This document shows, piece by piece, positions 5,977 through 18,794 of a DNA stretch of 64,000 nt; the stretch's first letter is position 1, and each line of letters opens with the position of its first letter. Origin of the DNA: Escherichia coli. GTDB lineage: Bacteria > Pseudomonadota > Gammaproteobacteria > Enterobacterales > Enterobacteriaceae. The stretch lies in assembly GCF_013315695.1 (NCBI RefSeq), contig NZ_CP054353.1; one strand, given 5' to 3'. The position numbers and the translations under genes were made by a program. The notes under the pieces are model-generated. The model saw only the letters and a list, made by a program, of their open reading frames with translations, did not search any database and had not been told where the DNA came from.

Positions 5977-6513
5977 ATGGCCAGCAGAGGCGTAAACAAG
6001 GTTATTCTCGTTGGTAATCTGGGTCAGGACCCGGAAGTACGCTACATGCCAAATGGTGGCGCAGTTGCCAACATTACGCTGGCTACTTCCGAATCCTGGC
6101 GTGACAAAGCGACCGGCGAGATGAAAGAGCAGACTGAATGGCACCGCGTTGTGCTGTTCGGCAAACTGGCAGAAGTAGCCAGCGAATATCTGCGTAAAGG
6201 TTCTCAGGTTTATATCGAAGGTCAGCTGCGTACCCGCAAATGGACCGATCAATCCGGTCAGGATCGCTACACCACAGAAGTCGTGGTGAACGTTGGCGGC
6301 ACCATGCAGATGCTGGGTGGTCGTCAGGGTGGTGGCGCTCCGGCAGGTGGCAATATCGGTGGTGGTCAGCCGCAGGGTGGTTGGGGTCAGCCTCAGCAGC
6401 CGCAGGGTGGCAATCAGTTCAGCGGCGGCGCGCAGTCTCGCCCGCAGCAGTCCGCTCCGGCAGCGCCGTCTAACGAGCCGCCGATGGACTTTGATGACGA
6501 TATTCCGTTCTAG
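5977..6513 (+). CDS. ssb: Single-stranded DNA-binding protein (178 aa)
   Basis: [32 protein letters not shown]... OB-fold N-terminus, Gly/Gln/Pro-rich linker, acidic tip DFDDDIPF. Confidence 0.97.
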
Positions 6514-6551
6514 AGTTAACTTGTGAGTTATTTGTAAAGAATCCATACGCA

Positions 6552-6580
6552 GGCCCCTGTTAATTCAGGGGTTTTTTGTT
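6552..6580 (+). terminator. Intrinsic terminator of ssb
   Basis: Hairpin caggcccctg-ttaattc-aggggttttttg. Confidence 0.7.
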
Positions 6581-6650
6581 TCTATCGTCGGAAAAAGTGT
6601 CTTGTATAAATTGGTGATTTTTCACATAAAGTGTACCTTGTAATTGTGTA

Positions 6651-7919
6651 ATGTTTATGGGGTGTGAGTGCATGGAAAAGAACTACAGAGTTACAACATT
6701 TGTCATGGATAGTGGCGAGCGCTATTGCATGGTAGTGGATCGTGCTTCTGGGCTTCCCATGTATTACCCCACTCTGTTTCTAACAACTCAAATCCGCAAT
6801 AGAGAGGATGCTTTTTCAACGATGTTGGCGGCGGCTAACAACCTGGTTATGTTGTTACGCTTTGTAGAGAGTCGCGACATTGACCTTGAGCAGCGGTTTT
6901 TGACCAAAGACTTCTTCAAGCCACATGAGCTGGATGATCTGCGAGATTTTGCTCAGTGCAAACAAAGAAAGGGGCCATTAACTGTGTCCTCTACCTCTTG
7001 GTTGGCCGATGCGATGACCGATATCGTTGATAACGGGACACAGCATTCCCGGCTAACAACGTTTGCCAACTATTTACACTGGTATGCGATGCATATCTTA
7101 AAGACGACAGAACTGGAAGTTGTCGAAAAGATCAATGCTATGGCGGCGCAGATAAAGACGCGCCGACCATCTAAAAAGCGCAGAAACCACGACTTACAAG
7201 ACAGGTCATTGAGTGATGTTCAATTGGACGCGCTATTTGAAGTCATCCAGCCTAGATCAGAGTTAAACCCTTTCTCAATAGATGTGCAGCGCCGCAATCG
7301 GCTGATGATCTTACTTCTGTTTTATCTTGGCATCCGAGGTGGTGAATTATTAAATATAAGAATACAGGACATAGATTTTAGCGCTAACAGGATCCGTATC
7401 GTTAGGAGAGCAGATGAACAAGCTGACTCTAGAACCAATGAGCCTAATGCTAAAACTAGAGAACGGCTCTTACCGTTGGCTGAATCCTTAGCTCAAGAAC
7501 TGCATAGTTATATCCTTCAAGATCGCCGGAAAGTCAGAAATGCGAAGAAAAATGACTATCTGTTTGTAACTTACAAGAGTGGACCAACTCTGGGAAATCC
7601 TATCTCCAAAGGGGGATATCATAAAATTTTTTCCGTAGTCAGGTCTATATCACCGCAATTGTATGCAGCGACAGGACATTCGCTCCGCCACACTTGGAAT
7701 CGCAAGTTTTCAGAAAGAATGGATGCCATGAATGAGCAAGTCAGCGAGGAACGCCAAGAGCAACTTCGTTCGTACTTAATGGGCTGGAGAGATGGCTCGG
7801 GAACCGCAGCGACTTACAACAAGCGTTTCATTCGGCAAAAAGGTTTTGAGGCCGCCTTGGCATTACAAGCAGGTAACGGCACTAGCTTGCCAGAGGACTT
7901 CAAGGATGACCATGAATAA
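6651..7919 (+). CDS. Tyrosine recombinase 1 of trio (integrase family, 422 aa; start may be the internal Met at 6672)
   Basis: Catalytic signature seen in translation: ...GIRGGELLNI... (Arg), HSLRHTW (His-x-x-Arg), LMGWRDGSGTAATYNKRF (Tyr nucleophile). Confidence 0.8.
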   Translation: MFMGCECMEKNYRVTTFVMDSGERYCMVVDRASGLPMYYPTLFLTTQIRNREDAFSTMLAAANNLVMLLRFVESRDIDLEQRFLTKDFFKPHELDDLRDFAQCKQRKGPLTVSSTSWLADAMTDIVDNGTQHSRLTTFANYLHWYAMHILKTTELEVVEKINAMAAQIKTRRPSKKRRNHDLQDRSLSDVQLDALFEVIQPRSELNPFSIDVQRRNRLMILLLFYLGIRGGELLNIRIQDIDFSANRIRIVRRADEQADSRTNEPNAKTRERLLPLAESLAQELHSYILQDRRKVRNAKKNDYLFVTYKSGPTLGNPISKGGYHKIFSVVRSISPQLYAATGHSLRHTWNRKFSERMDAMNEQVSEERQEQLRSYLMGWRDGSGTAATYNKRFIRQKGFEAALALQAGNGTSLPEDFKDDHE

Positions 7920-9444
7920 CCTCTTACTTGGGTTAGTACCAGAACGAATCCGTGCCAGGGCCAATGGCTACTCTTTTCTGTTGTATGACACATCGTGGAC
8001 ATTGGATAGAAATATCACTATTAATCTTGCTGATATTCACCATTACTTGTCAGATGGGACGCTAGATGGCTGCCTGCGTACACTGGCGTTTTATGCATCC
8101 AATCGTTCTTCTTCTCATACAAAAAATATTCTTGAACGGTTTCAGCACATGCTGCGTGAGACTGACGCGAGAGAAATTACTGATACGGTATTGATTAATT
8201 ATCGGTCGATGCTGTCGCCTGCAACAGAATGGTATCTAGCAACCATCCGTGGCTTTCTTCGATCCTGGCACGAACTGGGCTATCCCGGCATCAGTAAGGA
8301 GGTGAACCGCTTGCTAGATGGCTGGACGCTAAAGGGTAATCGTAAGGGGGATGCGGTTAAGCGCATGGATCCTCAAGAGGGGCCACTGACGGATAATGAG
8401 CTGACAGCGTTTAACGAGGGGGCTGTTCGGGCTTATGAAAAGAGCTTAATTACTATAGCTGAGTTGGCTATAGCACTTGGCACCAGTCATACAGGACGTC
8501 GTCCCATTCAGATCTCGCTGCTTCGTGTGGTCGATGTCCTTTGTGGTAAAAATGGAAAGGGAGAGCCCTTCTATGTGTTGAATGTGCCGCGAGCCAAGCA
8601 GCGCAGCAGCTCTTTCCGAATAAACTTCAAACCATTTGCAATATCACTGGAACTATGGGCAATCCTGAGTGCTCAGGCAAGAAATGCGATTGCGCAGGTT
8701 GAAAATCGTTTGGGGTTTGAATTGCAGGAAGATGACCGGCAGCAAATCCCTCTTTTTCCTGATCTTGATGTGTTAGATGCCGTCCAATCTCCTTATGAAT
8801 TCCGCCAACTGCATGCTACCGACAAACTCCACATTCCCGCCGCAGAGATAACCGACACCCTCCAATACATCGTAGAAAAGTCCGACATCCGGTCGGAACG
8901 TACCGGTGAGCTATTACATATCAATGCTCGTCGTTTTCGTTATACCACAGGCACACGAGCTGCCCGGGAAGGCTTTGGCGAGCTGGTGATTGCGGAACTG
9001 CTTGACCACGCGGACACCCAAAACGCAGGCGTTTACATCAAGAATATCCCCGAGCATGTGAAAAAGCTTGATGAGGCGGTTGGCTTCCAATTAGCACCAT
9101 ACGCTCAGGCCTTTGTCGGGGCACTTGTCGATTCAGAGAGAGACGCGCATCGAGGTAACGACCCTACCAGTCGTATTCGGACCGAAATGGGTCAGGGTGT
9201 TGGTACTTGTGGAGAACATGGCTTTTGTGGTGCCAATGTTCCTATTCCTTGCTACACCTGCATGCATTTCCAGCCTTGGCTGGACGGCCCACATGAAGAT
9301 GTCTATCAAGGACTGCTCAACGAACGTGAACGGGTGAAAGAGATAACTGGCGACATCCAGATTGCTGCCGTACTTGATCGCAGTATTATCGCGCTGGCAG
9401 ATGTGATCATGCGTTGTGCAAAACGTCGTGAAGAGCTTAGTTAA
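7906..9444 (+). CDS. Tyrosine recombinase 2 of trio (about 513 aa)
   Basis: C-terminal region with RRFRYTTGTRAAREG and LLDHADTQNAGVYI (R/H...Y pattern); ATG at 7906 or 7912 overlaps the upstream stop at 7917-7919. The ORF-track start at 7792 is rejected as an overlap artefact. Confidence 0.75.
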   Translation: MTMNNLLLGLVPERIRARANGYSFLLYDTSWTLDRNITINLADIHHYLSDGTLDGCLRTLAFYASNRSSSHTKNILERFQHMLRETDAREITDTVLINYRSMLSPATEWYLATIRGFLRSWHELGYPGISKEVNRLLDGWTLKGNRKGDAVKRMDPQEGPLTDNELTAFNEGAVRAYEKSLITIAELAIALGTSHTGRRPIQISLLRVVDVLCGKNGKGEPFYVLNVPRAKQRSSSFRINFKPFAISLELWAILSAQARNAIAQVENRLGFELQEDDRQQIPLFPDLDVLDAVQSPYEFRQLHATDKLHIPAAEITDTLQYIVEKSDIRSERTGELLHINARRFRYTTGTRAAREGFGELVIAELLDHADTQNAGVYIKNIPEHVKKLDEAVGFQLAPYAQAFVGALVDSERDAHRGNDPTSRIRTEMGQGVGTCGEHGFCGANVPIPCYTCMHFQPWLDGPHEDVYQGLLNERERVKEITGDIQIAAVLDRSIIALADVIMRCAKRREELS

Positions 9445-9460
9445 CAGGGAGCAATAACCA

Positions 9461-11494
9461 ATGGCTGAGATTTTCCTGTTTAAGCCAAAGGCTACGCTGA
9501 CAGCAGCAGAAAACCTTGAAGCATTCATATCCCAGTGCCGAGATCAATTGACTGTATTCGGCTCTGATCTCACTTGGGAAGATCCTGTTTGGCCAAACAT
9601 AACTGTATTTGCCAAGTTGGGCATTATTACGAGAAAACCCATACTGGAAGAGACGCAAGACCCTGCTTTCATTGATTTTGCCAAAGCCTATTTCCGTTAC
9701 CAGCAGGGGCATAGCCTCTCTAGGGCAAAGAATGAAAGTAAAGCCCTCCGTGCGGTTGAGGCGGCTTTGCTTCAAGTAAATGGAAACGCAAATATTGATG
9801 GCCTGTCGATTTCTGTGCTGGATGAAGCAGCTGAATTGGCAAAGCATTACTACTCCGATGGCTCCGCATATCATTGTGGCCGTGAGATTGAGCGGCTGGC
9901 TAAGTTTGTAGCTGAAAACCAGCTTGTATCAAGTGCTGTACAAAATTGGGTCAATCCAATTAAACGTGCAGAGGATAAGAACAAAACGAGCAGAAAGGCG
10001 AAGAAAAATAGGGAAGATAAACTTCCGAGTGATATTGCTCTTAATGCGTTGGCGGAAATTTTTGCCAACGACCCAATTCATGAGCGAGACATATTTACAA
10101 CATCGGTTTTTGCCATGTTGATGTCGGCACCTTCACGTATTACTGAGGTGTTAGCACTGCCTGTGGATTGCGAGGTTTTTGAAACGGATCGTGAAGGGAT
10201 AGAACGATATGGTTGGCGTTTTTTTGCGGGGAAAGGCTATGAGGGTGATATCAAATGGATACCCACCGTGATGGTCGGTATAGCTAAGACAGCCGTAGCT
10301 AGAGCTAGAGTGCTCTCTGAAAATGCACGACAACTGGCCAAGTGGATCGAGAAACACCCGAATAAGTTTTACCGCCATGCTAACTGTCCCAGTGTAGCCG
10401 ATGATGAGCCATTGACGATGAAGCAGGTTTGTATGGCGCTCGGTTTTGCACATTACTCTAAAAAGACGTGCAGGTCGTGTCTTGGTAATCGAGGTTTAGC
10501 TAAAGAGGATGGTGTACATACTCTAAATAGCCTGTGGCAGCACACAATGGCGCGTTTACCGGATGGCTTTCCGTGGTTTGATAAAGACAAGGGAATTAGG
10601 TACAGCAATGCCTTGTTTGTACTGAACGTAAATCAGTTCCACGGGAACAGAGGATGCATACCAGTTGAGTTACATAAGCCAACCAATAATTTCTTCAACA
10701 GTGATCTGACGCCTCGTCTGTCCTTGAAAGGAAAACATGCCAGTATCTTTGATCGCCATGGTTACCATGCTGTAAACGGAGAGCCGGTGAAATTAACCTC
10801 ACATCAGGCTCGACACCTGCTCAACACCATTATCCAGCGCGGTGGCCTGTCAAACTTGGAAATTGCCAAGTGGTCGGGGCGGGCAGATGTGAAACAGAAT
10901 CGAACTTACAACCACATGACTGAATACGAACTGGTTGGCATTGCTGAACGCCTTGATCCCACAACAGCGCTATTTGGGCCTGCTGGCGAGGTGGCAAAGC
11001 ATCTGCCCGTGACTATGCAGGAGTTCAATACCTTAGAGCATGCCGCAGTCCATGTGACGGAGTATGGCTACTGTGTGCATGATTACACCATGAGTCCTTG
11101 TGAGAAATTCCGAGATTGCGTCAATTGTACCGAACAGGTTTGCATCAAAGGCGATGATGCTGAAAAGTTGGATCGCATTAAGATACGTCTGGAGAAATTA
11201 GAGCGACTGTTTTTTCTTGCTGACGCAGCAGTGGAAAGTGGTGAGATAGGAACTGATCGCTGGTATCAGTACCACAAGAAAACTGTTACCCGGCTTCGTG
11301 AACTAGTGGCTATTTTAGAGAATCCAGACATTGAAAATGGTGTCCAGATTAAGCTCCGGGGCAATGATTTCAGCCAGCTTCGCCGTGTTGTCGCAAAGAC
11401 GTCTATTGTGGCCATCGAGCAAAAAGGCAAAGAAAGTGAAGAAGCTGTGATGTTAGATGATTTGACAACTTTGTTAGGAGGTGGCCTTGGCTAA
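9461..11494 (+). CDS. Tyrosine recombinase 3 of trio (677 aa)
   Basis: LTSHQARHLLNT (H-x-x-R-H) and WSGRADVKQNRTYNHM (Tyr) motifs; RBS-like cagggag 8 nt upstream of ATG. Confidence 0.75.
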   Translation: MAEIFLFKPKATLTAAENLEAFISQCRDQLTVFGSDLTWEDPVWPNITVFAKLGIITRKPILEETQDPAFIDFAKAYFRYQQGHSLSRAKNESKALRAVEAALLQVNGNANIDGLSISVLDEAAELAKHYYSDGSAYHCGREIERLAKFVAENQLVSSAVQNWVNPIKRAEDKNKTSRKAKKNREDKLPSDIALNALAEIFANDPIHERDIFTTSVFAMLMSAPSRITEVLALPVDCEVFETDREGIERYGWRFFAGKGYEGDIKWIPTVMVGIAKTAVARARVLSENARQLAKWIEKHPNKFYRHANCPSVADDEPLTMKQVCMALGFAHYSKKTCRSCLGNRGLAKEDGVHTLNSLWQHTMARLPDGFPWFDKDKGIRYSNALFVLNVNQFHGNRGCIPVELHKPTNNFFNSDLTPRLSLKGKHASIFDRHGYHAVNGEPVKLTSHQARHLLNTIIQRGGLSNLEIAKWSGRADVKQNRTYNHMTEYELVGIAERLDPTTALFGPAGEVAKHLPVTMQEFNTLEHAAVHVTEYGYCVHDYTMSPCEKFRDCVNCTEQVCIKGDDAEKLDRIKIRLEKLERLFFLADAAVESGEIGTDRWYQYHKKTVTRLRELVAILENPDIENGVQIKLRGNDFSQLRRVVAKTSIVAIEQKGKESEEAVMLDDLTTLLGGGLG

Positions 11495-11906
11495 GCATCT
11501 GGACAATAGAGACATTAACGCCATCGTAAATCTAATTCGAGGATGGAAGGAACCAAAACTGTCCTGGTCAGCAATTTGTGAGGCGGCAGAACCATTGGTC
11601 GGAAAGTTGCCGTCAAGACAGTCCCTTAATGCACATGAGGCAATAGTGACTGCCTATCAAACAAAGAAAGAGGCGCTTAAAGGCCGTGGCCCCAAAAATC
11701 CGCGTCCAGCTAGTTTGAACATTGCAGCCGCGAGGATTGTGAATCTTGAAAGCGAAATCGAAGAGCTTAAGGAAGAGAACCGGAGGTACAAACAACAGTT
11801 TGTGATCTGGCAATACAATGCATACAAATATGGAATGACAGAACATCAACTTAATGCGCAGCTGACAAAGATTGACCGTGAGCGCTCTGATGGAGAAAGA
11901 AGATAG
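11481..11906 (+). CDS. Small protein (about 140 aa) coupled to recombinase 3; possible ginD-like accessory factor
   Basis: ORF overlaps the 3' end of recombinase 3 (GTG 11481 or TTG 11487 just after aggagg); C-terminal half has coiled-coil character (LESEIEELKEENRRYKQQ). Function not recognisable. Confidence 0.5.
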   Translation: MALAKHLDNRDINAIVNLIRGWKEPKLSWSAICEAAEPLVGKLPSRQSLNAHEAIVTAYQTKKEALKGRGPKNPRPASLNIAAARIVNLESEIEELKEENRRYKQQFVIWQYNAYKYGMTEHQLNAQLTKIDRERSDGERR

Positions 11907-11981
11907 TTGCTGAGTACGATATCGAGGGTACATTTCTCTGTGTAGGGGTAGTTATTTACAAAAAAATAGGAGAATAATTAA

Positions 11982-14900
11982 ATGGTCAAACCAAACTGGG
12001 ATAACTTTAAAGCTAAATTTAGTGAGAATCCTCAAGGTAATTTTGAGTGGTTTTGCTACTTGTTGTTCTGTCAAGAATTCAAAATGCCCGCAGGTATATT
12101 TAGATATAAGAATCAATCTGGTATCGAAACTAATCCAATAACCAAAGATAATGAAATTATCGGTTGGCAATCTAAATTCTATGACACAAAATTGTCGGAT
12201 AACAAAGCTGATCTTATAGAAATGATTGAGAAAAGCAAAAAGGCTTATCCAGGATTAAGTAAAATCATTTTCTATACTAATCAAGAGTGGGGGCAGGGGA
12301 GAAAGTCCCATGAACCTGAAGGCGATAAGAACGCTGATAATTATTTGGAAACTGTCGGAAATAGTAACGATCCCAAAATAAAAATTGAAGTTGATCAGAA
12401 AGCATATGAGTCGGGTATCGAAATAGTATGGAGAGTTGCTAGTTTTTTTGAATCACCGTTTGTAATAGTTGAGAATGAAAAGATTGCTAAACATTTCTTC
12501 TCCCTTAATGAAAGCATCTTTGATTTATTAGAAGAAAAGCGCAAGCACACAGAAAATGTTTTATATGAAATTCAAACCAATATAGAGTTCAAAGACAGAA
12601 GTATTGAAATTGACAGACGACATTGTATAGAACTTCTACATGAGAATCTAGTTCAGAAAAAAATTGTCATCGTCAGCGGAGAAGGTGGGGTTGGAAAAAC
12701 AGCAGTTATCAAAAAAATTTATGAAGCAGAAAAACAATACACTCCTTTCTATGTCTTTAAGGCTAGCGAGTTTAAAAAGGACAGTATTAATGAGCTATTC
12801 GGTGCGCATGGCTTAGACGATTTCTCTAATGCTCATCAAGACGAATTACGTAAAGTCATAGTCGTAGATTCTGCTGAAAAGCTTTTAGAACTGACCAATA
12901 TCGATCCTTTTAAAGAATTCCTGACTGTTTTAATAAAGGATAAATGGCAGGTTGTTTTCACAACCCGTAACAACTACTTGGCAGATCTGAACTATGCTTT
13001 CATAGATATTTATAATATAACTCCTGGAAACTTAGTAATAAAGAACCTTGAACGCGGCGAGCTAATAGAGTTATCTGATAACAATGGATTTAGCCTTCCT
13101 CAAGATGTTCGATTATTAGAACTAATCAAAAATCCATTTTATCTAAGTGAATATTTGAGGTTCTATACCGGTGAAAGCATCGATTATGTGAGCTTCAAAG
13201 AAAAGCTTTGGAATAAGATTATTGTCAAAAATAAACCTTCTCGGGAGCAGTGTTTCTTAGCGACTGCTTTTCAGCGGGCTAGTGAGGGCCAATTTTTTGT
13301 CTCCCCGGCATGTGATACTGGAATTTTAGATGAGTTAGTTAAAGACGGAATTGTCGGCTATGAAGCTGCTGGTTACTTCATTACACATGATATATACGAG
13401 GAATGGGCATTAGAAAAGAAAATTTCTGTCGATTATATCCGTAAAGCGAACAATAACGAGTTCTTCGAAAAAATAGGAGAATCACTTCCTGTTCGCCGTA
13501 GTTTTCGGAATTGGATATCTGAACGATTGCTTTTAGATGACCAGTCCATAAAGCCTTTTATCGCAGAAATAGTCTGTGGAGAAGGAATATCAAATTTTTG
13601 GAAAGACGAGTTATGGGTAGCTGTCCTTCTTTCCGATAATTCAAGCATATTTTTTAATTACTTTAAAAGATATTTACTTAGTAGTGACCAGAATCTATTA
13701 AAAAGACTTACTTTCTTATTGAGGCTTGCTTGCAAGGACGTTGATTACGATCTGCTTAAACAGTTAGGTGTAAGTAATTCAGATCTGCTTTCCATTAAAT
13801 ATGTTCTTACTAAGCCTAAGGGAACTGGTTGGCAGAGTGTGATCCAATTTATCTATGAAAATTTAGATGAAATAGGGATCAGAAATATTAATTTTATACT
13901 TCCTGTGATTCAGGAGTGGAATCAAAGAAACAAAGTGGGTGAAACGACTCGATTATCTAGTTTGATAGCCCTAAAATATTATCAATGGACTGTAGATGAG
14001 GATGTCTATTTATCCGGAAGGGATAATGAGAAAAATATTCTGCATACGATTCTTCATGGGGCGGCCATGATTAAACCTGAAATGGAAGAGGTTTTAGTTA
14101 AGGTTCTTAAAAATAGGTGGAACGAGCACGGTACCCCATATTTCGACCTTATGACCTTAATCCTTACTGACTTAGATTCATATCCGGTTTGGGCATCTCT
14201 CCCGGAATATGTTCTACAATTGGCAGATCTGTTCTGGTATCGGCCACTTAAAGAAACAGGCGAACGTTATCACAGTATGGATATTGAAGATGAGTTCGGT
14301 CTATTTAGGTCTCATCACGACTATTATCCAGAAAGTCCATATCAGACTCCTATATATTGGTTACTACAATCACAGTTCAAAAAAACAATAGACTTTATTC
14401 TTGATTTTACGAACAAGACAACGATATGTTTTGCCCACTCCCATTTTGCTAAAAACGAAATTGAAGAAGTCGATGTCTTTATTGAAGAAGGAAAGTTTAT
14501 AAAGCAATATATATGCAATCGTCTGTGGTGCTCATATCGAGGAACACAGGTCTCTACCTACTTACTTTCATCAATTCATATGGCATTGGAAAAATTTTTT
14601 CTTGAGAATTTTAAAAATGCAGACTCGAAAGTGTTGGAAAGTTGGCTTCTTTTCTTGTTAAGAAATACCAAGTCAGCTTCTATTTCTGCAGTAGTTACGA
14701 GTATTGTACTTGCATTCCCTGAGAAGACATTCAATGTAGCTAAAGTACTATTCCAAACAAAGGATTTCTTCCGTTTTGATATGAATCGAATGGTTCTAGA
14801 CAGAACACATAAAAGTTCATTAATCTCCCTCAGGGATGGCTTTGGCGGTACAGATTACAGAAACTCTTTGCACGAAGAAGATAGAATTAAAGCTTGCGAT

Positions 14901-16745
14901 GATGTGCATAGAAATACTTATCTTGAAAATCTTGCCTTGCATTATCAAATTTTCAGGAGTGAAAATGTAACGGAGAAAGATGTCATTGAAAGGCAACAAG
15001 TGCTCTGGGGTATTTTCGATAAATACTATAATCAGCTTCCAGATGAAGCTCAAGAAACTGAAGCCGATAAGACGTGGAGGCTCTGCTTGGCAAGAATGGA
15101 TCGGCGAAAGATGAAAATAACTACCAAGGAGAAAGATGAAGGGATTGAGATATCATTCAATCCTGAGATTGACCCTAAACTAAAGCAATATAGTGAGGAA
15201 GCAATAAAGAAAAACTCCGAGCATATGAAGTATGTAACGCTGAAACTATGGGCAAGCTATAAAAGAGAAAAGGATGAACGTTATAAGAATTATGGAATGT
15301 ATGAGGACAATCCGCAAATTGCTTTACAAGAGACCAAAGAAATAATAAAAAAGCTTAATGAGGAAGGGGGTGAAGATTTCAGACTATTAAATGGTAATAT
15401 ACCAGCAGACGTTTGTTCTGTATTACTGTTAGATTACTTTAATCAGTTGAATAATGAAGAGAGAGAATATTGTAAAGATATTGTTCTAGCATATTCTCAA
15501 CTTCCGTTGAAGGAAGGCTATAATTATCAGGTACAAGATGGGACAACCTCGGCAATTTCAGCCTTACCCGTGATTTATCATAATTATCCAATGGAAAGGG
15601 AGACTATAAAAACAATATTACTTTTGACACTGTTTAATGACCACTCTATTGGAATGGCAGGTGGGCGCTACTCAGTATTTCCTAGTATGGTGATTCATAA
15701 ATTATGGCTAGACTATTTTGATGATATGCAGTCTCTATTGTTTGGTTTTTTGATTTTAAAGCCAAAGTATGTAATTCTTTCAAGAAAAATCATTCATGAA
15801 AGTTATCGTCAAGTAGACTATGACATTAAAAAAATAAATATTAATAAGGTGTTTTTAAATAACTATAAGCATTGCATATCAAATGTCATCGATAATAAAA
15901 TATCTATAGATGATTTGGGAAGTATAGATATAGTTGATCTACATATTTTGAACACAGCTTTCCAATTAATTCCAGTTGATACTGTTAATATTGAACATAA
16001 GCAATTGGTTTCCTTAATTGTTAAAAGATTTTCTACAAGCCTATTGTCAAGTGTTCGAGAAGATAGAGTTGATTACGCTCTTCGGCAGTCTTTCTTGGAA
16101 AGATTTGCCTACTTTACGCTTCATGCGCCCGTGAGCGATATTCCCGATTATATAAAACCTTTTCTTGATGGTTTCAACGGTTCAGAGCCTATTTCAGAGT
16201 TATTTAAAAAATTTATTCTCGTCGAAGATAGATTAAATACTTACGCCAAATTTTGGAAGGTTTGGGATTTGTTTTTTGATAAAGTGGTTACTTTGTGCAA
16301 GGATGGAGATAGGTATTGGTATGTAGATAAAATTATAAAAAGTTACCTTTTTGCTGAATCTCCATGGAAAGAAAACTCTAATGGTTGGCACACATTTAAA
16401 GATAGCAATAGTCAATTCTTTTGCGATGTATCTAGGACTATGGGCCATTGCCCTTCAACTTTATATTCTCTTGCCAAATCTTTGAATAACATTGCCAGTT
16501 GCTATCTTAATCAAGGTATAACCTGGCTTTCAGAAATGTTGTCGGTTAATAAAAAGCTATGGGAAAAGAAATTGGAAAATGATACTGTTTATTTTTTAGA
16601 ATGTTTGGTTAGGCGGTATATTAACACTGAGCGTGAGCGAATTAGACGAACCAAACAGTTGAAAGAAGAGGTCTTAGTAATATTGGATTTTTTGGTAGAG
16701 AAAGGATCTGTTGTTGGTTATATGTCACGGGAAAATATTCTGTGA
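11982..16745 (+). CDS. Large STAND-type P-loop NTPase (1587 aa): N-terminal unknown domain (about 1-220), NTPase core (about 225-330), about 1250-aa helical C-terminal region; candidate anti-phage (Avs-like) protein
   Basis: Strong RBS (aggag, 9-nt spacer). Walker A GEGGVGKT (aa 233-240), Walker B VIVVDSAE (aa 292-299), TTR motif in QVVFTTRN (aa 323-330) typical of STAND NTPases. Very AT-rich codon usage; no transmembrane or secretion signals noticed. Confidence 0.8.
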   Translation: MVKPNWDNFKAKFSENPQGNFEWFCYLLFCQEFKMPAGIFRYKNQSGIETNPITKDNEIIGWQSKFYDTKLSDNKADLIEMIEKSKKAYPGLSKIIFYTNQEWGQGRKSHEPEGDKNADNYLETVGNSNDPKIKIEVDQKAYESGIEIVWRVASFFESPFVIVENEKIAKHFFSLNESIFDLLEEKRKHTENVLYEIQTNIEFKDRSIEIDRRHCIELLHENLVQKKIVIVSGEGGVGKTAVIKKIYEAEKQYTPFYVFKASEFKKDSINELFGAHGLDDFSNAHQDELRKVIVVDSAEKLLELTNIDPFKEFLTVLIKDKWQVVFTTRNNYLADLNYAFIDIYNITPGNLVIKNLERGELIELSDNNGFSLPQDVRLLELIKNPFYLSEYLRFYTGESIDYVSFKEKLWNKIIVKNKPSREQCFLATAFQRASEGQFFVSPACDTGILDELVKDGIVGYEAAGYFITHDIYEEWALEKKISVDYIRKANNNEFFEKIGESLPVRRSFRNWISERLLLDDQSIKPFIAEIVCGEGISNFWKDELWVAVLLSDNSSIFFNYFKRYLLSSDQNLLKRLTFLLRLACKDVDYDLLKQLGVSNSDLLSIKYVLTKPKGTGWQSVIQFIYENLDEIGIRNINFILPVIQEWNQRNKVGETTRLSSLIALKYYQWTVDEDVYLSGRDNEKNILHTILHGAAMIKPEMEEVLVKVLKNRWNEHGTPYFDLMTLILTDLDSYPVWASLPEYVLQLADLFWYRPLKETGERYHSMDIEDEFGLFRSHHDYYPESPYQTPIYWLLQSQFKKTIDFILDFTNKTTICFAHSHFAKNEIEEVDVFIEEGKFIKQYICNRLWCSYRGTQVSTYLLSSIHMALEKFFLENFKNADSKVLESWLLFLLRNTKSASISAVVTSIVLAFPEKTFNVAKVLFQTKDFFRFDMNRMVLDRTHKSSLISLRDGFGGTDYRNSLHEEDRIKACDDVHRNTYLENLALHYQIFRSENVTEKDVIERQQVLWGIFDKYYNQLPDEAQETEADKTWRLCLARMDRRKMKITTKEKDEGIEISFNPEIDPKLKQYSEEAIKKNSEHMKYVTLKLWASYKREKDERYKNYGMYEDNPQIALQETKEIIKKLNEEGGEDFRLLNGNIPADVCSVLLLDYFNQLNNEEREYCKDIVLAYSQLPLKEGYNYQVQDGTTSAISALPVIYHNYPMERETIKTILLLTLFNDHSIGMAGGRYSVFPSMVIHKLWLDYFDDMQSLLFGFLILKPKYVILSRKIIHESYRQVDYDIKKININKVFLNNYKHCISNVIDNKISIDDLGSIDIVDLHILNTAFQLIPVDTVNIEHKQLVSLIVKRFSTSLLSSVREDRVDYALRQSFLERFAYFTLHAPVSDIPDYIKPFLDGFNGSEPISELFKKFILVEDRLNTYAKFWKVWDLFFDKVVTLCKDGDRYWYVDKIIKSYLFAESPWKENSNGWHTFKDSNSQFFCDVSRTMGHCPSTLYSLAKSLNNIASCYLNQGITWLSEMLSVNKKLWEKKLENDTVYFLECLVRRYINTERERIRRTKQLKEEVLVILDFLVEKGSVVGYMSRENIL

Positions 16746-16790
16746 TGTAGTTGAAAATAATAATTTTAATGAGAGCTTTTCCAATTTAGG

Positions 16791-16815
16791 CTCCAGGGAT
16801 TGGAGCCTTTTTATT
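16791..16815 (+). terminator. Intrinsic terminator after the large NTPase gene
   Basis: Hairpin ggctccaggg-a-ttggagcc followed by tttttatt. Confidence 0.6.
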
Positions 16816-16840
16816 ATCGAAAAGATTAATATCTTATAAG

Positions 16841-17059
16841 TCAATCAGTAAAACGCAGCAAAGCTCGTTGCTCTTGAATGTTCACTCCGTGATAAATTCT
16901 TTGATTACCACATAAATAACAAGAACAAGCACAAGGGGTGCAGTAAATTTTCCCTACAACTTTTTCAGTTTTAGCCAACGCAATTCGATATGTTTTTCTC
17001 TTAGATTTTAACCGAGATATATGATGACGACGCCATGCCCGATTTCTAACCATTTCCAT
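16841..17059 (-). CDS. Small basic Cys-rich hypothetical protein (72 aa)
   Basis: ORF with GGAG-type RBS; Arg/Lys-rich N-terminus and a CTPCACSCYLCG cysteine cluster (possible zinc ribbon). No family recognised. Confidence 0.3.
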   Translation of the reverse strand: MEMVRNRAWRRHHISRLKSKRKTYRIALAKTEKVVGKIYCTPCACSCYLCGNQRIYHGVNIQEQRALLRFTD

Positions 17060-17283
17060 TCACTCCAATTTTCTACCGCGGTGTTATACCGCGCCCGTAT
17101 CAATCTTTGGAGTTCGATATCGATCTGACCTTTCATGAATACCTCGGAATTTATCAATAAAGTGAGTGCTATATCATAGCTTATGGGATGAAAGTTTGAT
17201 ATTTAGCACTTTTCAGCTTTAGGTAAAGCTGTCCTCAATAAAGCTAATTTCTTGTTTATTAATGGAATTTCTATGTGGAAGTG

Positions 17284-18105
17284 TTAGAAATCCTGTTTTA
17301 CTTTATCCATCGTTAAAACTTTACTTATTATATAAGGATCATAATTTCTTATACTCATAAGGCAATTTATCAAATTGGAAACGTGGCTATCATCAGGTAT
17401 AAGTATATATTTAATATCATCGAAAGAAAAACCAATGCCAAATTCAGAGAATTTTTTACTTAAGACGGCCTTCTGGTTAGGTTCCACCACTCGCTCTAAA
17501 TTTAGGCTAGGCCATAAATCGCCAACAAACGGATGCGGTACATATCTCCATTCTTTTTCGTCAGCGTAGATATAATTCTCAATGGTTTTTTCGTTCGTCC
17601 TTTCTAATTTCCCTTTATAATTTTTCATATAGCGTAATAAATTATAAAGGTCAGCGTACTCTTCTTTAAGGCTTTCAAAATACTTACGCTCTTTATTATC
17701 AAGGATATGCCTTTTCGACCATAGCGGAATTAACGCATCCTTTAGTTTTCTAATTCTTTTATTATACTTTGAAAATAATTCACTGCCTTGATTCATGTAT
17801 AGAACGGGATGGAGATCATTTTTCTCAGCCCATTCTTTTGTTAACCCAAATCCAAATTCACCATATTTTCCACTATGATCTTTAATCTGAGAAAGCTTGA
17901 TGTCACAGAATGAAACCATTGGTACTGCGAAATTTCTTCTTCCTTTTACTCCGACTATGCGTTCACGGGCAAGAAATGGTTTAAAATAGAGTTCTGTTAA
18001 AATGCTATAGAATGCCTCTTCATTTTTAGTAAAGTGAAACAACGTTGTTGGATGTAAACTATTAACTGCTTGTATAACTGTTTCTTGGTTTTCTATAGCA
18101 CTCAT
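17284..18105 (-). CDS. AbiGi-like abortive-infection family protein (273 aa)
   Basis: N-terminal LFHFTKNEEAFYSILTE... resembles, by recall, the FHFT-type N-terminus of AbiGi-family proteins; AT-rich; convergent with the NTPase gene. Confidence 0.55.
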   Translation of the reverse strand: MSAIENQETVIQAVNSLHPTTLFHFTKNEEAFYSILTELYFKPFLARERIVGVKGRRNFAVPMVSFCDIKLSQIKDHSGKYGEFGFGLTKEWAEKNDLHPVLYMNQGSELFSKYNKRIRKLKDALIPLWSKRHILDNKERKYFESLKEEYADLYNLLRYMKNYKGKLERTNEKTIENYIYADEKEWRYVPHPFVGDLWPSLNLERVVEPNQKAVLSKKFSEFGIGFSFDDIKYILIPDDSHVSNLINCLMSIRNYDPYIISKVLTMDKVKQDF

Positions 18106-18483
18106 ATATTAACTGTTCCATAGTGTAAAACCTGACTTAGCAAAGGTTATCATACTAGTCTTTGTACTGTAAGCACACTTGGTTTAATTCCACGCACTTT
18201 TTGAGATTTCCGGTTTTTTGATCTCTTACCAAAATCTATGCCAGATTGAATCAAAGGTCCGAGCTGGGTCACCAAAAAAAGTAAAATTATGCACTTTGAT
18301 AGATTATATTTTAACTAAATTCTTTACAGTTAAATCATTTCTTATGCCTTAGTTTCTGATAAAAAAGGTTTTTTTTCACGATTTATAAGTATCAGGTTAT
18401 GTGAACCGTTCTGATTTGTCGTTAAAACAATAGGTTATATTGTTTTAAGGTGGATGATTAAAGCATCTGCCAGCCATAAAAAA

Positions 18484-18506
18484 GAAGCCTCCGTTTTGGA
18501 GGCTTC
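18484..18506 (-). terminator. Terminator downstream of yjcB (backbone)
   Basis: Hairpin gaagcctccg-ttt-tggaggcttc with an A-run on the plus strand (U-run on the minus strand), immediately after the yjcB stop. Confidence 0.5.
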
Positions 18507-18512
18507 TACATA

Positions 18513-18794
18513 TCAAGTCAAAATCATTGGCCATTGTGGCGGTGTCTGATTCATCTCTTCTATCATCACCGACTCGATGTTGTGCCAGATGGCGGTGATA
18601 TCCGCCATTGTGATGCCAAGCAACCCCATTGCGAACCAGCAGGCAGAAACCACGCCCAGACCGCTGCTGATCACTGCAAGCCCGACATAATCAGACCGAC
18701 GAAAACGGATGTTGAGTGTGCTGGCCAGAAACATCATTACGGCACTAAGAAGTTGCCAGCGAAGAAGAACCACGCCAGTGGTGAGGGTAGCCAT
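18513..18794 (-). CDS. yjcB: Small inner-membrane protein YjcB (93 aa)
   Basis: Hydrophobic ORF MATLTTGVVLLRWQLL...; position after ssb as in K-12. The ORF track extends to 18893, but a 93-aa product starting at the internal Met is expected. Confidence 0.8.
   Translation of the reverse strand: MATLTTGVVLLRWQLLSAVMMFLASTLNIRFRRSDYVGLAVISSGLGVVSACWFAMGLLGITMADITAIWHNIESVMIEEMNQTPPQWPMILT

Follow-up and report, generated by a model that had tools for sequence, protein, structure and literature searches.

Results

Gene content of the ssb-yjcB locus

The window –the whole stretch of 64,000 nucleotides of Escherichia coli DNA that we analyzed– carries an island between ssb and yjcB. The ssb gene (SSB1; 5977-6513, + strand) was taken from the open reading frame list and the RefSeq annotation, and its product ends in DDDIPF*. 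On the right chromosomal flank, yjcB (18513-18794, − strand) was placed from the annotation of an identical record. The initial annotation had outlined a ~11.9-kb ssb-yjcB island inserted site-specifically by a tyrosine recombinase at a short direct repeat. That outline stands; what has to be replaced is the identity of the repeat, the place of the left junction, and the assignment of a terminator.

At one end of the island, four genes that are all on the + strand and overlap or lie 16 bp apart form a ginABCD operon. The first one, ginA (6672-7919, +), encodes a tyrosine recombinase of 415 aa (PF00589, E = 2.2e-15, together with Xer-type NCBIfam matches), and the motifs IRGGE, HSLRH, and TY can be read in its translation. 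It is followed by ginB (7906-9444, +), a site-specific integrase of 512 aa (NCBIfam NF041502, E = 8e-204; weak PF00589, E = 0.0069), for which the comparison to the PDB retrieved nothing significant. The largest gene of the operon, ginC (9461-11494, +; 677 aa), is probably related to tyrosine recombinases, as judged from the PF00589 matches of its homologues. Its own PF00589 match is weak (E = 0.2); the C-terminal catalytic part of this domain was matched by 17 of the 23 GinC homologues (best E = 1.5e-6), and NCBI names many of them "integrase". Against the PDB, the single GinC sequence gave one insignificant match and the profile gave none, and the AlphaFold model built from the 23-sequence alignment (pLDDT of 46) was too poor for a fold search. 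GinA and GinB are tyrosine-recombinase related and, at the family level, GinC probably is too. GinC has been described in publications as being without part of the catalytic set. When reading the alignment by eye, we observed that the GinC lineage keeps R...HxxR...W...Y residues, with R226, R451, W471, and Y483 invariant. The last gene, ginD (11487-11906, +), encodes a small protein of 139 aa without family match in Pfam or NCBIfam, and its position and size match GinD, which in GInts is a small protein with a helix-loop-helix at the C-terminus. The same ginABCD module is also present in Pectobacterium, Pantoea, Klebsiella, and Pseudomonas aeruginosa.

The cargo comprises two genes. Avs4 (AVAST type 4; 11982-16745, +) is an anti-phage STAND nuclease that matched NCBIfam NF041815 over its full length with 2,066 bits. 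The second one (17284-18105, −) encodes an AbiGi-family protein (PF10899, E = 1e-24) that scored below the cut-off of the NCBIfam AbiGI model. The island ends with 300 bp of AT-rich non-coding DNA (18106-18405, +) that contain no open reading frame (GC of 0.32 over 18001-18500); within this 3′ end, a scan located a promoter-like site facing abiGi. No phage or transfer genes were found in the island, either in the annotation or with Pfam. A lambda-type integrase island, which would have a single integrase next to att together with phage or ICE functions, was discarded for this reason and because recombination is encoded here by four genes.

Junctions and empty sites

In island-free E. coli (two strains, EFF60 and a J53 derivative), the ssb-yjcB spacer measures 98 bp and contains a single CCGTTCT. 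The alignment of the window to these two empty sites breaks exactly at CCGTTCT: the left flank matches up to GATATTCCGTTCT, and the right flank resumes at CCGTTCTGATTTGTC. The junctions are a 7-bp direct repeat CCGTTCT, with one copy at 6505-6511 (+; attL core) and the other one at 18406-18412 (+; attR core). Between them lie 11,894 bp of island-specific DNA (6512-18405, +), so the inserted length is 11,901 bp when counting one core copy. The island boundaries are exact to within the 7-bp repeat.

The attL core is the target-derived copy according to the empty-site alignment, and heterologous targets keep their own sequence at this position. The attR core is the copy travelling with the element: it is constant in all eight contexts examined, and the identity to plasmid copies ends at it. 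At the left junction, the core corresponds to the Pro-Phe codons and the first base of the ssb stop codon, and the hexamer CCGTTC (6505-6510) is probably the crossover or overlap region. The insertion leaves the SSB product unchanged (WP_000168305.1 in both island-bearing and island-free strains), with a TAG stop codon in the presence of the island versus TGA in the empty sites.

An island-borne intrinsic terminator (6551-6584, +; hairpin at 6551-6574), detected with a terminator scan, replaces the native ssb terminator. This hairpin had been considered chromosomal in the initial annotation, with the left junction downstream of it; instead, it belongs to the island, since it is present in the plasmid copies, and the true junction falls within the last ssb codons. 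The native hairpin terminator of the spacer (18483-18507, unstranded), found by the same kind of scan and also present in the empty sites, is now 11.9 kb away from ssb.

CCGTTCT occurs 5 + 4 times in the window, so the 7-bp repeat has no statistical weight by itself. In a general repeat search of 6400-18600, the true core went unreported, since 7 bp are too few to be picked up; the output consisted of numerous chance pairs, with at least 60 direct families and 230 inverted pairs. The case for the CCGTTCT junctions rests entirely on comparison.

Copies of the island in other ssb genes

The island, at a minimum of 80% of the query, was found in 357 of the 5,426 complete E. coli genomes (6.6%), and its flanks were matched in nearly all of them. 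Five further ssb genes, those of IncF, IncI, and IncN plasmids and of two P1-like phage-plasmid types, also carry the same 11,894-bp segment (6512-18405) at their 3′ end. Strain MSB1_4I carries both: its chromosome matches the window at 100% over 13.6 kb, and its plasmid 3, a conjugative IncFIA/FIC replicon, harbors a copy with 0 substitutions and 0 indels, inserted at the 3′ end of the ssb gene of that plasmid. When comparing the window to plasmid 3, the identity stops at the core on both sides. The IncI host type of the element is an IncI-gamma/K1 plasmid.

The predicted empty site with a single core was found in island-free records for all five plasmid targets. It was recovered at 100% identity for IncF, IncI, IncN, and the pR15 type, and the P1-type site was read directly in phage P1 and in SJ46 as ATTCCGTTTTGAATG. 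Together, the other insertion sites and their empty sites fix the ends of the element without reference to the chromosome. Its boundaries and junction positions, its several targets, and its gene content are all established here. We found no report of GInts in plasmid ssb genes when searching the open-access text of the literature.

The attR core reads CCGTTCT in the chromosome and in every plasmid type. The attL core reads CCGTTCT in the chromosome and in IncF, CCGTTTT in the P1-like type, CCATTCT in IncI, and CCATTTT in both the pR15-type IncY and IncN. Wherever the cores differ, attL has the sequence of the target and attR that of the element, as seen in four of the four heterologous plasmid targets. 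An element of EC09 at the chromosomal site presents the same polarity (attL CCGTTCT, attR CCTTTTT), and Pectobacterium probably does too. The hexamer accounts for every difference between the attL and attR cores. For five events, the one-sided probability of such an outcome under a 50:50 expectation is ~0.03. In pEC0430-1, both cores are identical and give no information on polarity. For the element of a Klebsiella oxytoca IncC plasmid, the left junction could be read, but IS and transposon insertions kept us from finding the right end within 20 kb.

Since the target consists of the conserved C-terminal codons of SSB, the element could enter any ssb gene, including chromosomal, IncF, IncI, IncN, and P1-like ones. 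Riding on conjugative plasmids or phage-plasmids would give it cell-to-cell transfer.

Anatomy of the element ends

Relatives with ssb directly upstream of ginA were found in the E. coli strains EC09 and MIN9 and in Pectobacterium, Pantoea, Klebsiella, and P. aeruginosa pPAD8. Their GinC identities range from 43 to 89%, and the core and the left-end layout are common to all of them. The left-end plan comprises the core, T-ACCT at a fixed offset, TGTAAAG, a hairpin with variable stem, and an invariant TACCTT ~30 bp before the ginA start. The hairpin and the T-run after it are kept in five divergent elements, and the stem sequence varies.

The left terminal arm TAGAGTTAACTTGT (6511-6524, +) contains the family-conserved T-ACCT element, in which T13, A15, C16, and T18 do not vary among the five aligned elements. 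The arm of the window's own copy is degenerate, with TAACTT versus TTACCT in relatives, and ACCT stands at the same offset in the P. aeruginosa element. At the opposite end, the right terminal block TATCAGGTTATGTGAA (18390-18405, +) abuts the core and contains AGGTTA, the inverted partner of the T-ACCT in the left arm. Directly before the core, TAT(C/T)AGGT(A/T)A...GAA is common to the right ends of the five divergent elements, whose conservation is limited to the last ~16 bp. Together, the two arms form an inverted repeat around a 6-bp spacer, with 7-9 matches out of 14 in each of the five elements.

Two recombinase binding sites around a 6-bp overlap are the usual layout. We suggest the left arm (6511-6524) and the right block (18390-18405) as candidate core-type recombinase binding sites, given their conservation and symmetry, and the spacer between them points to 6-bp staggered cuts. 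In a circular form, the ends would be arranged as an imperfect inverted repeat, AGGTWA-N6-[CCGTTC]-N6-TWACCT, and the junction would read TATCAGGTTATGTGAA-CCGTTCT-AGAGTTAAC. Staggered cuts of 6 nt have been proposed for GInts (PMC5385486), and the spacer observed here agrees with that.

Motifs near both ends of the island

The initial annotation had proposed two stretches of similar motifs as imperfect attL and attR, with an island running from approximately 6598 to 18367. Its strings are indeed there: AAAAAG begins at 6592 and 18362, and TTTTTCAC at 6618 and 18372; next come ataaagtgta in the left stretch and ataagta in the right one. The motifs lie in the same order, on the same strand, and near both ends. 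Aligned locally, 6578-6650 and 18350-18405 reach a best score of 13, somewhat above controls for a single comparison that was picked after looking at the sequence (p about 0.01-0.045): 4.5% of mononucleotide shuffles and 1% of real window segments with similar GC reach this score, which the reverse-complement comparison of the motif regions also obtains. Besides, an exact 8-mer is expected in common in ~11.5% of the pairs of unrelated AT-rich segments with these lengths. The annotation had itself warned of a chance match in AT-rich DNA, and shuffles, real segments, and the 8-mer control all place the similarity at chance level.

The comparison to the island-free ssb-yjcB spacer, which had been put forward as the way to check the proposal, sets the breakpoints at 6511|6512 and 18405-18412, at CCGTTCT and away from the motifs, which is the outcome that the annotation had named as refuting its proposal. 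The suggested breakpoints are both internal to the island, the left one (6597|6598) by 86 bp and the right one (18367|18368) by 38-45 bp. The segments beyond them (6512-6597 and 18368-18405) travel with the island into five other ssb contexts. Moreover, the motifs are unconserved in related elements. At the position of TTTTTCAC, the left end reads cttcctaac in MIN9, ataaattgc in Pectobacterium, and tttttagga in Pantoea; at the right end it reads tttttttac in MIN9 and is absent elsewhere. We consider it extremely improbable that these motifs are the attachment sites, and they can be dropped.

What the two regions contain can be read from the element itself. The left one (6591-6636, +) is island-internal DNA, upstream or leader of ginA, between the island terminator and ginA. 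Its conserved pieces in the five-element alignment are TTG (6611-6613) and TACCTT (6634-6639), and TTTTTCAC lies in the unconserved stretch between them. The right one (18361-18400) falls in the AT-rich 3′ end and reaches the conserved terminal block with no more than its final 11 bases (18390-18400), the one part in which the proposed range overlaps the true end. The left region may hold a ginA promoter or operator. An internal promoter upstream of ginA has been reported for GInts (PMC5385486), and our sigma-70 scan of 6400-6800 detected no consensus promoter.

Arm-type sites are present in many tyrosine-recombinase elements, and the motifs could represent subterminal sites of this kind, bound by a recombinase or an accessory protein near both ends. 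Both lie at most ~130 bp from the true ends. All five divergent elements keep TACCTT (6634-6639), which is similar to the T-ACCT in the left core arm, and TTTATAAGT is found again near the right end of a Pantoea element. A 23-nt inverted match of 74% also pairs 6621-6643 with 18383-18405. Against this, the shared words AAAAAG and TTTTTCAC are unconserved, a 9-bp inverted match is missing in EC09 despite a nearly identical left end, and the 12-kb region contains 230 inverted pairs of such quality. For GInt 3′ ends, no common feature was found (PMC5385486), and the conserved pieces of the left end are equally explicable as a ginA promoter or operator. On balance, arm-type sites seem an unlikely reading of these motifs. 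The inverted pair itself (6621-6643/18383-18405), which looked attractive with one arm ending at the island terminus, was set aside, as EC09 does not retain it and the match is probably due to chance.

Assignment of the island to GInts

GInts have three parts, in which the ginABCD operon is followed by cargo and then by a short, AT-rich 3′ end (Bardaji et al. 2017, PMC5385486). Six of them were described at the end of ssb, where their attL extends over the last bases of the gene and leaves its product as it was (PMC5385486). The island presents the one-strand four-gene operon at one end, with GinA and GinB as tyrosine recombinases, followed by cargo and an AT-rich, poorly conserved 3′ end (300 bp here, within the 0.2-0.4 kb of GInts), and it is flanked by short direct repeats that are chimeras of the att sites of the element and the target. 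The published att repeats of ssb GInts are GTGCCGTTCT for Opitutus, CCGTTCTAAT/CCGTTTTGAAT for Ralstonia, and CCGTTTTTAATT/CCTTTTTTAATT for Shewanella (PMC5385486, Table S3), and the CCGTTCT core found here is the core of those repeats. The yjcB/ssb site is E. coli defence hotspot #39, occupied in 38 of 1,292 genomes and shown to hold GInts (Hochhauser et al. 2023, PMC10121019), and its islands were classed as GInts by BLAST to GInt proteins (PMC10121019). Our prevalence of 6.6% of the genomes for this one island is in line with GInts being present in 7.5% of Escherichia replicons (PMC10214605). Finally, a full-length GinC homologue (43% identity, E = 2e-168) is encoded in a module adjoining ssb in a P. 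aeruginosa plasmid. The link to GInts is thus suggested by the architecture, the published classification of the hotspot, and this plasmid homologue.

Another element with several recombinases, either a strand-biased circularizing integrative element (SE; intA-tfp-intB-srap) or a relative of Tn554, would share some of these traits: four genes, two of them clear tyrosine recombinases, a small last protein, target specificity, and no transfer genes. The core polarity is also that of SEs and Tn554 (PMC10214605). However, the genes are arranged as in ginABCD and not as in intA-tfp-intB-srap: the proteins measure 415, 512, 677, and 139 aa, and the third one is both the largest and the least similar to an integrase. 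Published GInts have this ssb target and the CCGTTCT repeat, and the islands of this hotspot were already classed as such (PMC10121019). SEs and GInts form separate protein clusters, and SEs are present in 0.3% of Escherichia replicons versus 7.5% for GInts; Tn554 comprises three genes, and its known hosts are Staphylococcus and Enterococcus, which are Firmicutes (PMC10214605). This makes an SE or a Tn554 relative very unlikely. We are confident that the island is a GInt, site-specifically integrated into the last ssb codons with CCGTTC(T) as junctions.

Discussion

Mobility and core polarity

We propose that recombination would take place in the hexamer CCGTTC, which encodes Pro-Phe, or in the 7-mer CCGTTCT when the first base of the stop codon is counted. 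On insertion, the element supplies a new TAG stop codon for ssb and its own terminator, ginABCD, Avs4 and AbiGi, and the 300-bp AT-rich 3′ end. GInts excise as a circle and need all four gin genes for it. The distribution of the copies suggests that this element excises, forms circles, and integrates, and that it is mobile at present.

Ordinary two-strand exchange followed by replication should yield both polarities of the core. The uniform polarity observed here is suggestive of a strand-biased mechanism like that of SEs and Tn554. In those elements, the target hexamer is kept at attL and a 6-bp "footprint" of the donor is left at attR (PMC10214605). For GInts, the question of a strand-biased mechanism "remains elusive" (PMC10214605). 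The identical chromosomal and plasmid copies in MSB1_4I are compatible with replicative movement. Altogether, it is possible, if still somewhat short of an even chance, that GInts transpose by the strand-biased "copy-out, footprint-leaving" route of SEs and Tn554, and that this element, by aiming at the universally conserved Pro-Phe-stop end of SSB, hops among the chromosome, conjugative plasmids, and P1-like phage-plasmids. If true, hopping among replicons that carry ssb would explain how a GInt without transfer genes spreads.

Significance

The island belongs to an already described family at an already catalogued defence hotspot, so there is little new in it as such. Beyond previous studies (PMC5385486; PMC10121019; PMC10214605), it adds only the distribution on plasmids and phage-plasmids and the core polarity. 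An Avs4 GInt in chromosomal, IncF, IncI, IncN, and P1-like ssb genes would represent a concrete route of spread for an island without transfer genes. The uniform choice of the core hints at a strand-biased mechanism common to GInts, SEs, and Tn554.

Comparison with known systems

When compared to the GInts previously described (PMC5385486; PMC10121019), the island is alike in the order of operon, cargo, and 3′ end, in the insertion at the end of ssb with an unchanged SSB, in the CCGTTCT-based repeats, in a defence cargo (AVAST), and in having no transfer genes of its own. Nothing essential differs. The details that we did not find in those studies are the occupation of six ssb genes, the identical chromosomal and plasmid copies within one strain, and the uniform core choice.

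Prophages and islands of the lambda type are alike in that a tyrosine recombinase integrates them at the 3′ end of a conserved gene, whose end is restored, with an identical short core. They differ in using Int with or without Xis and often a tRNA target, whereas here we found four recombination genes, a core of 6-7 bp, no phage or conjugation genes, and a family of protein-coding genes as the target on many replicons.

SEs and Tn554 resemble the island in several respects. They have several tyrosine-recombinase genes together with a small essential protein, they are specific for a target site, their imperfect inverted terminal repeats are separated by a 6-bp spacer, and a 6-bp footprint is left at attR. 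They differ in gene order, protein families, hosts, and targets, and for the island the strand bias is only suggested by natural junctions.

Results and discussion

In E. coli MSB1_4I, whose chromosome matches the window, we found a second copy of the island at the ssb gene of a conjugative IncFIA/FIC plasmid. This plasmid copy (plasmid 3, NZ_LR898876.1, 3067-14960) is identical base for base to window positions 6512-18405, and this identity suggests that the island moved recently within a single cell of this strain.

The Avs4 island was also located in the ssb gene of three P1-like phage-plasmids (NZ_CP026475.1, NZ_CP123030.1, and NZ_MK256965.1, the latter being pR15_MCR-1), so that a phage-derived replicon carries an anti-phage defence island. 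Judging by the plasmid name, one of the three also harbors mcr-1. Some plasmid-borne copies were decayed: IS3 copies interrupted ginC in NZ_CP083507.1, and transposon genes replaced the region past ginC in CP008790.1, the IncC plasmid of K. oxytoca KONIH1.

E. coli EC09 presented a related GInt (20614-41512 in its comparison record) at the chromosomal site that the window island occupies, with a gin operon 87% identical to that of the window; a Klebsiella michiganensis record is grouped with it. The cargo of this EC09-type GInt is larger than and different from that of the window island. It encodes, among others, a 1,102-aa protein accompanied by two response-regulator genes, and also contains a QueC/PfkB/nucleoside-transferase cluster, an anti-phage dGTPase, and a number of IS elements. 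For Pectobacterium brasiliense, the main cargo of the related ssb-GInt was a SIR2-STAND (Avs-like) protein (12583-15693 of its record), and the probable attR core of this element is CCCTTTT, vs. CCGTTCT at attL.

On a Pantoea ananatis contig (approximately 19170-19300), the right end of the GInt and its core were directly followed by a sequence resembling a GInt left end, AGAGTTGATCTATGAATTATCTGTA, and then by a hairpin terminator. The gin operon was absent downstream of this left-end-like sequence, which may be left over from an insertion, either tandem or earlier, into this site.

Within the window island, the AbiGi-family gene (17284-18105, minus strand) had no AbiGii-like partner next to it. 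This gene accompanies Avs4 in both lineages examined, the window type and the one represented by E. coli MIN9.

Outside the island, 9 bp beyond the right junction, position 18421 of the window is G, and A is present there (gatttgtcGttaaaac) in the two strains lacking the island as well as in two others that carry it; the difference is probably an ordinary SNP. At the other end of the window, positions 1-1500 showed a low GC content (0.30-0.42), in contrast to the adjoining uvrA region.

Finally, the alignment of 23 GinC homologues displayed R226, R451, H452, W471, and Y483 of GinC (window 9461-11494) as invariant and H448 as nearly invariant. Taken together, these conserved residues resemble a full tyrosine-recombinase catalytic set, although published descriptions of GinC state that some of this set is missing.
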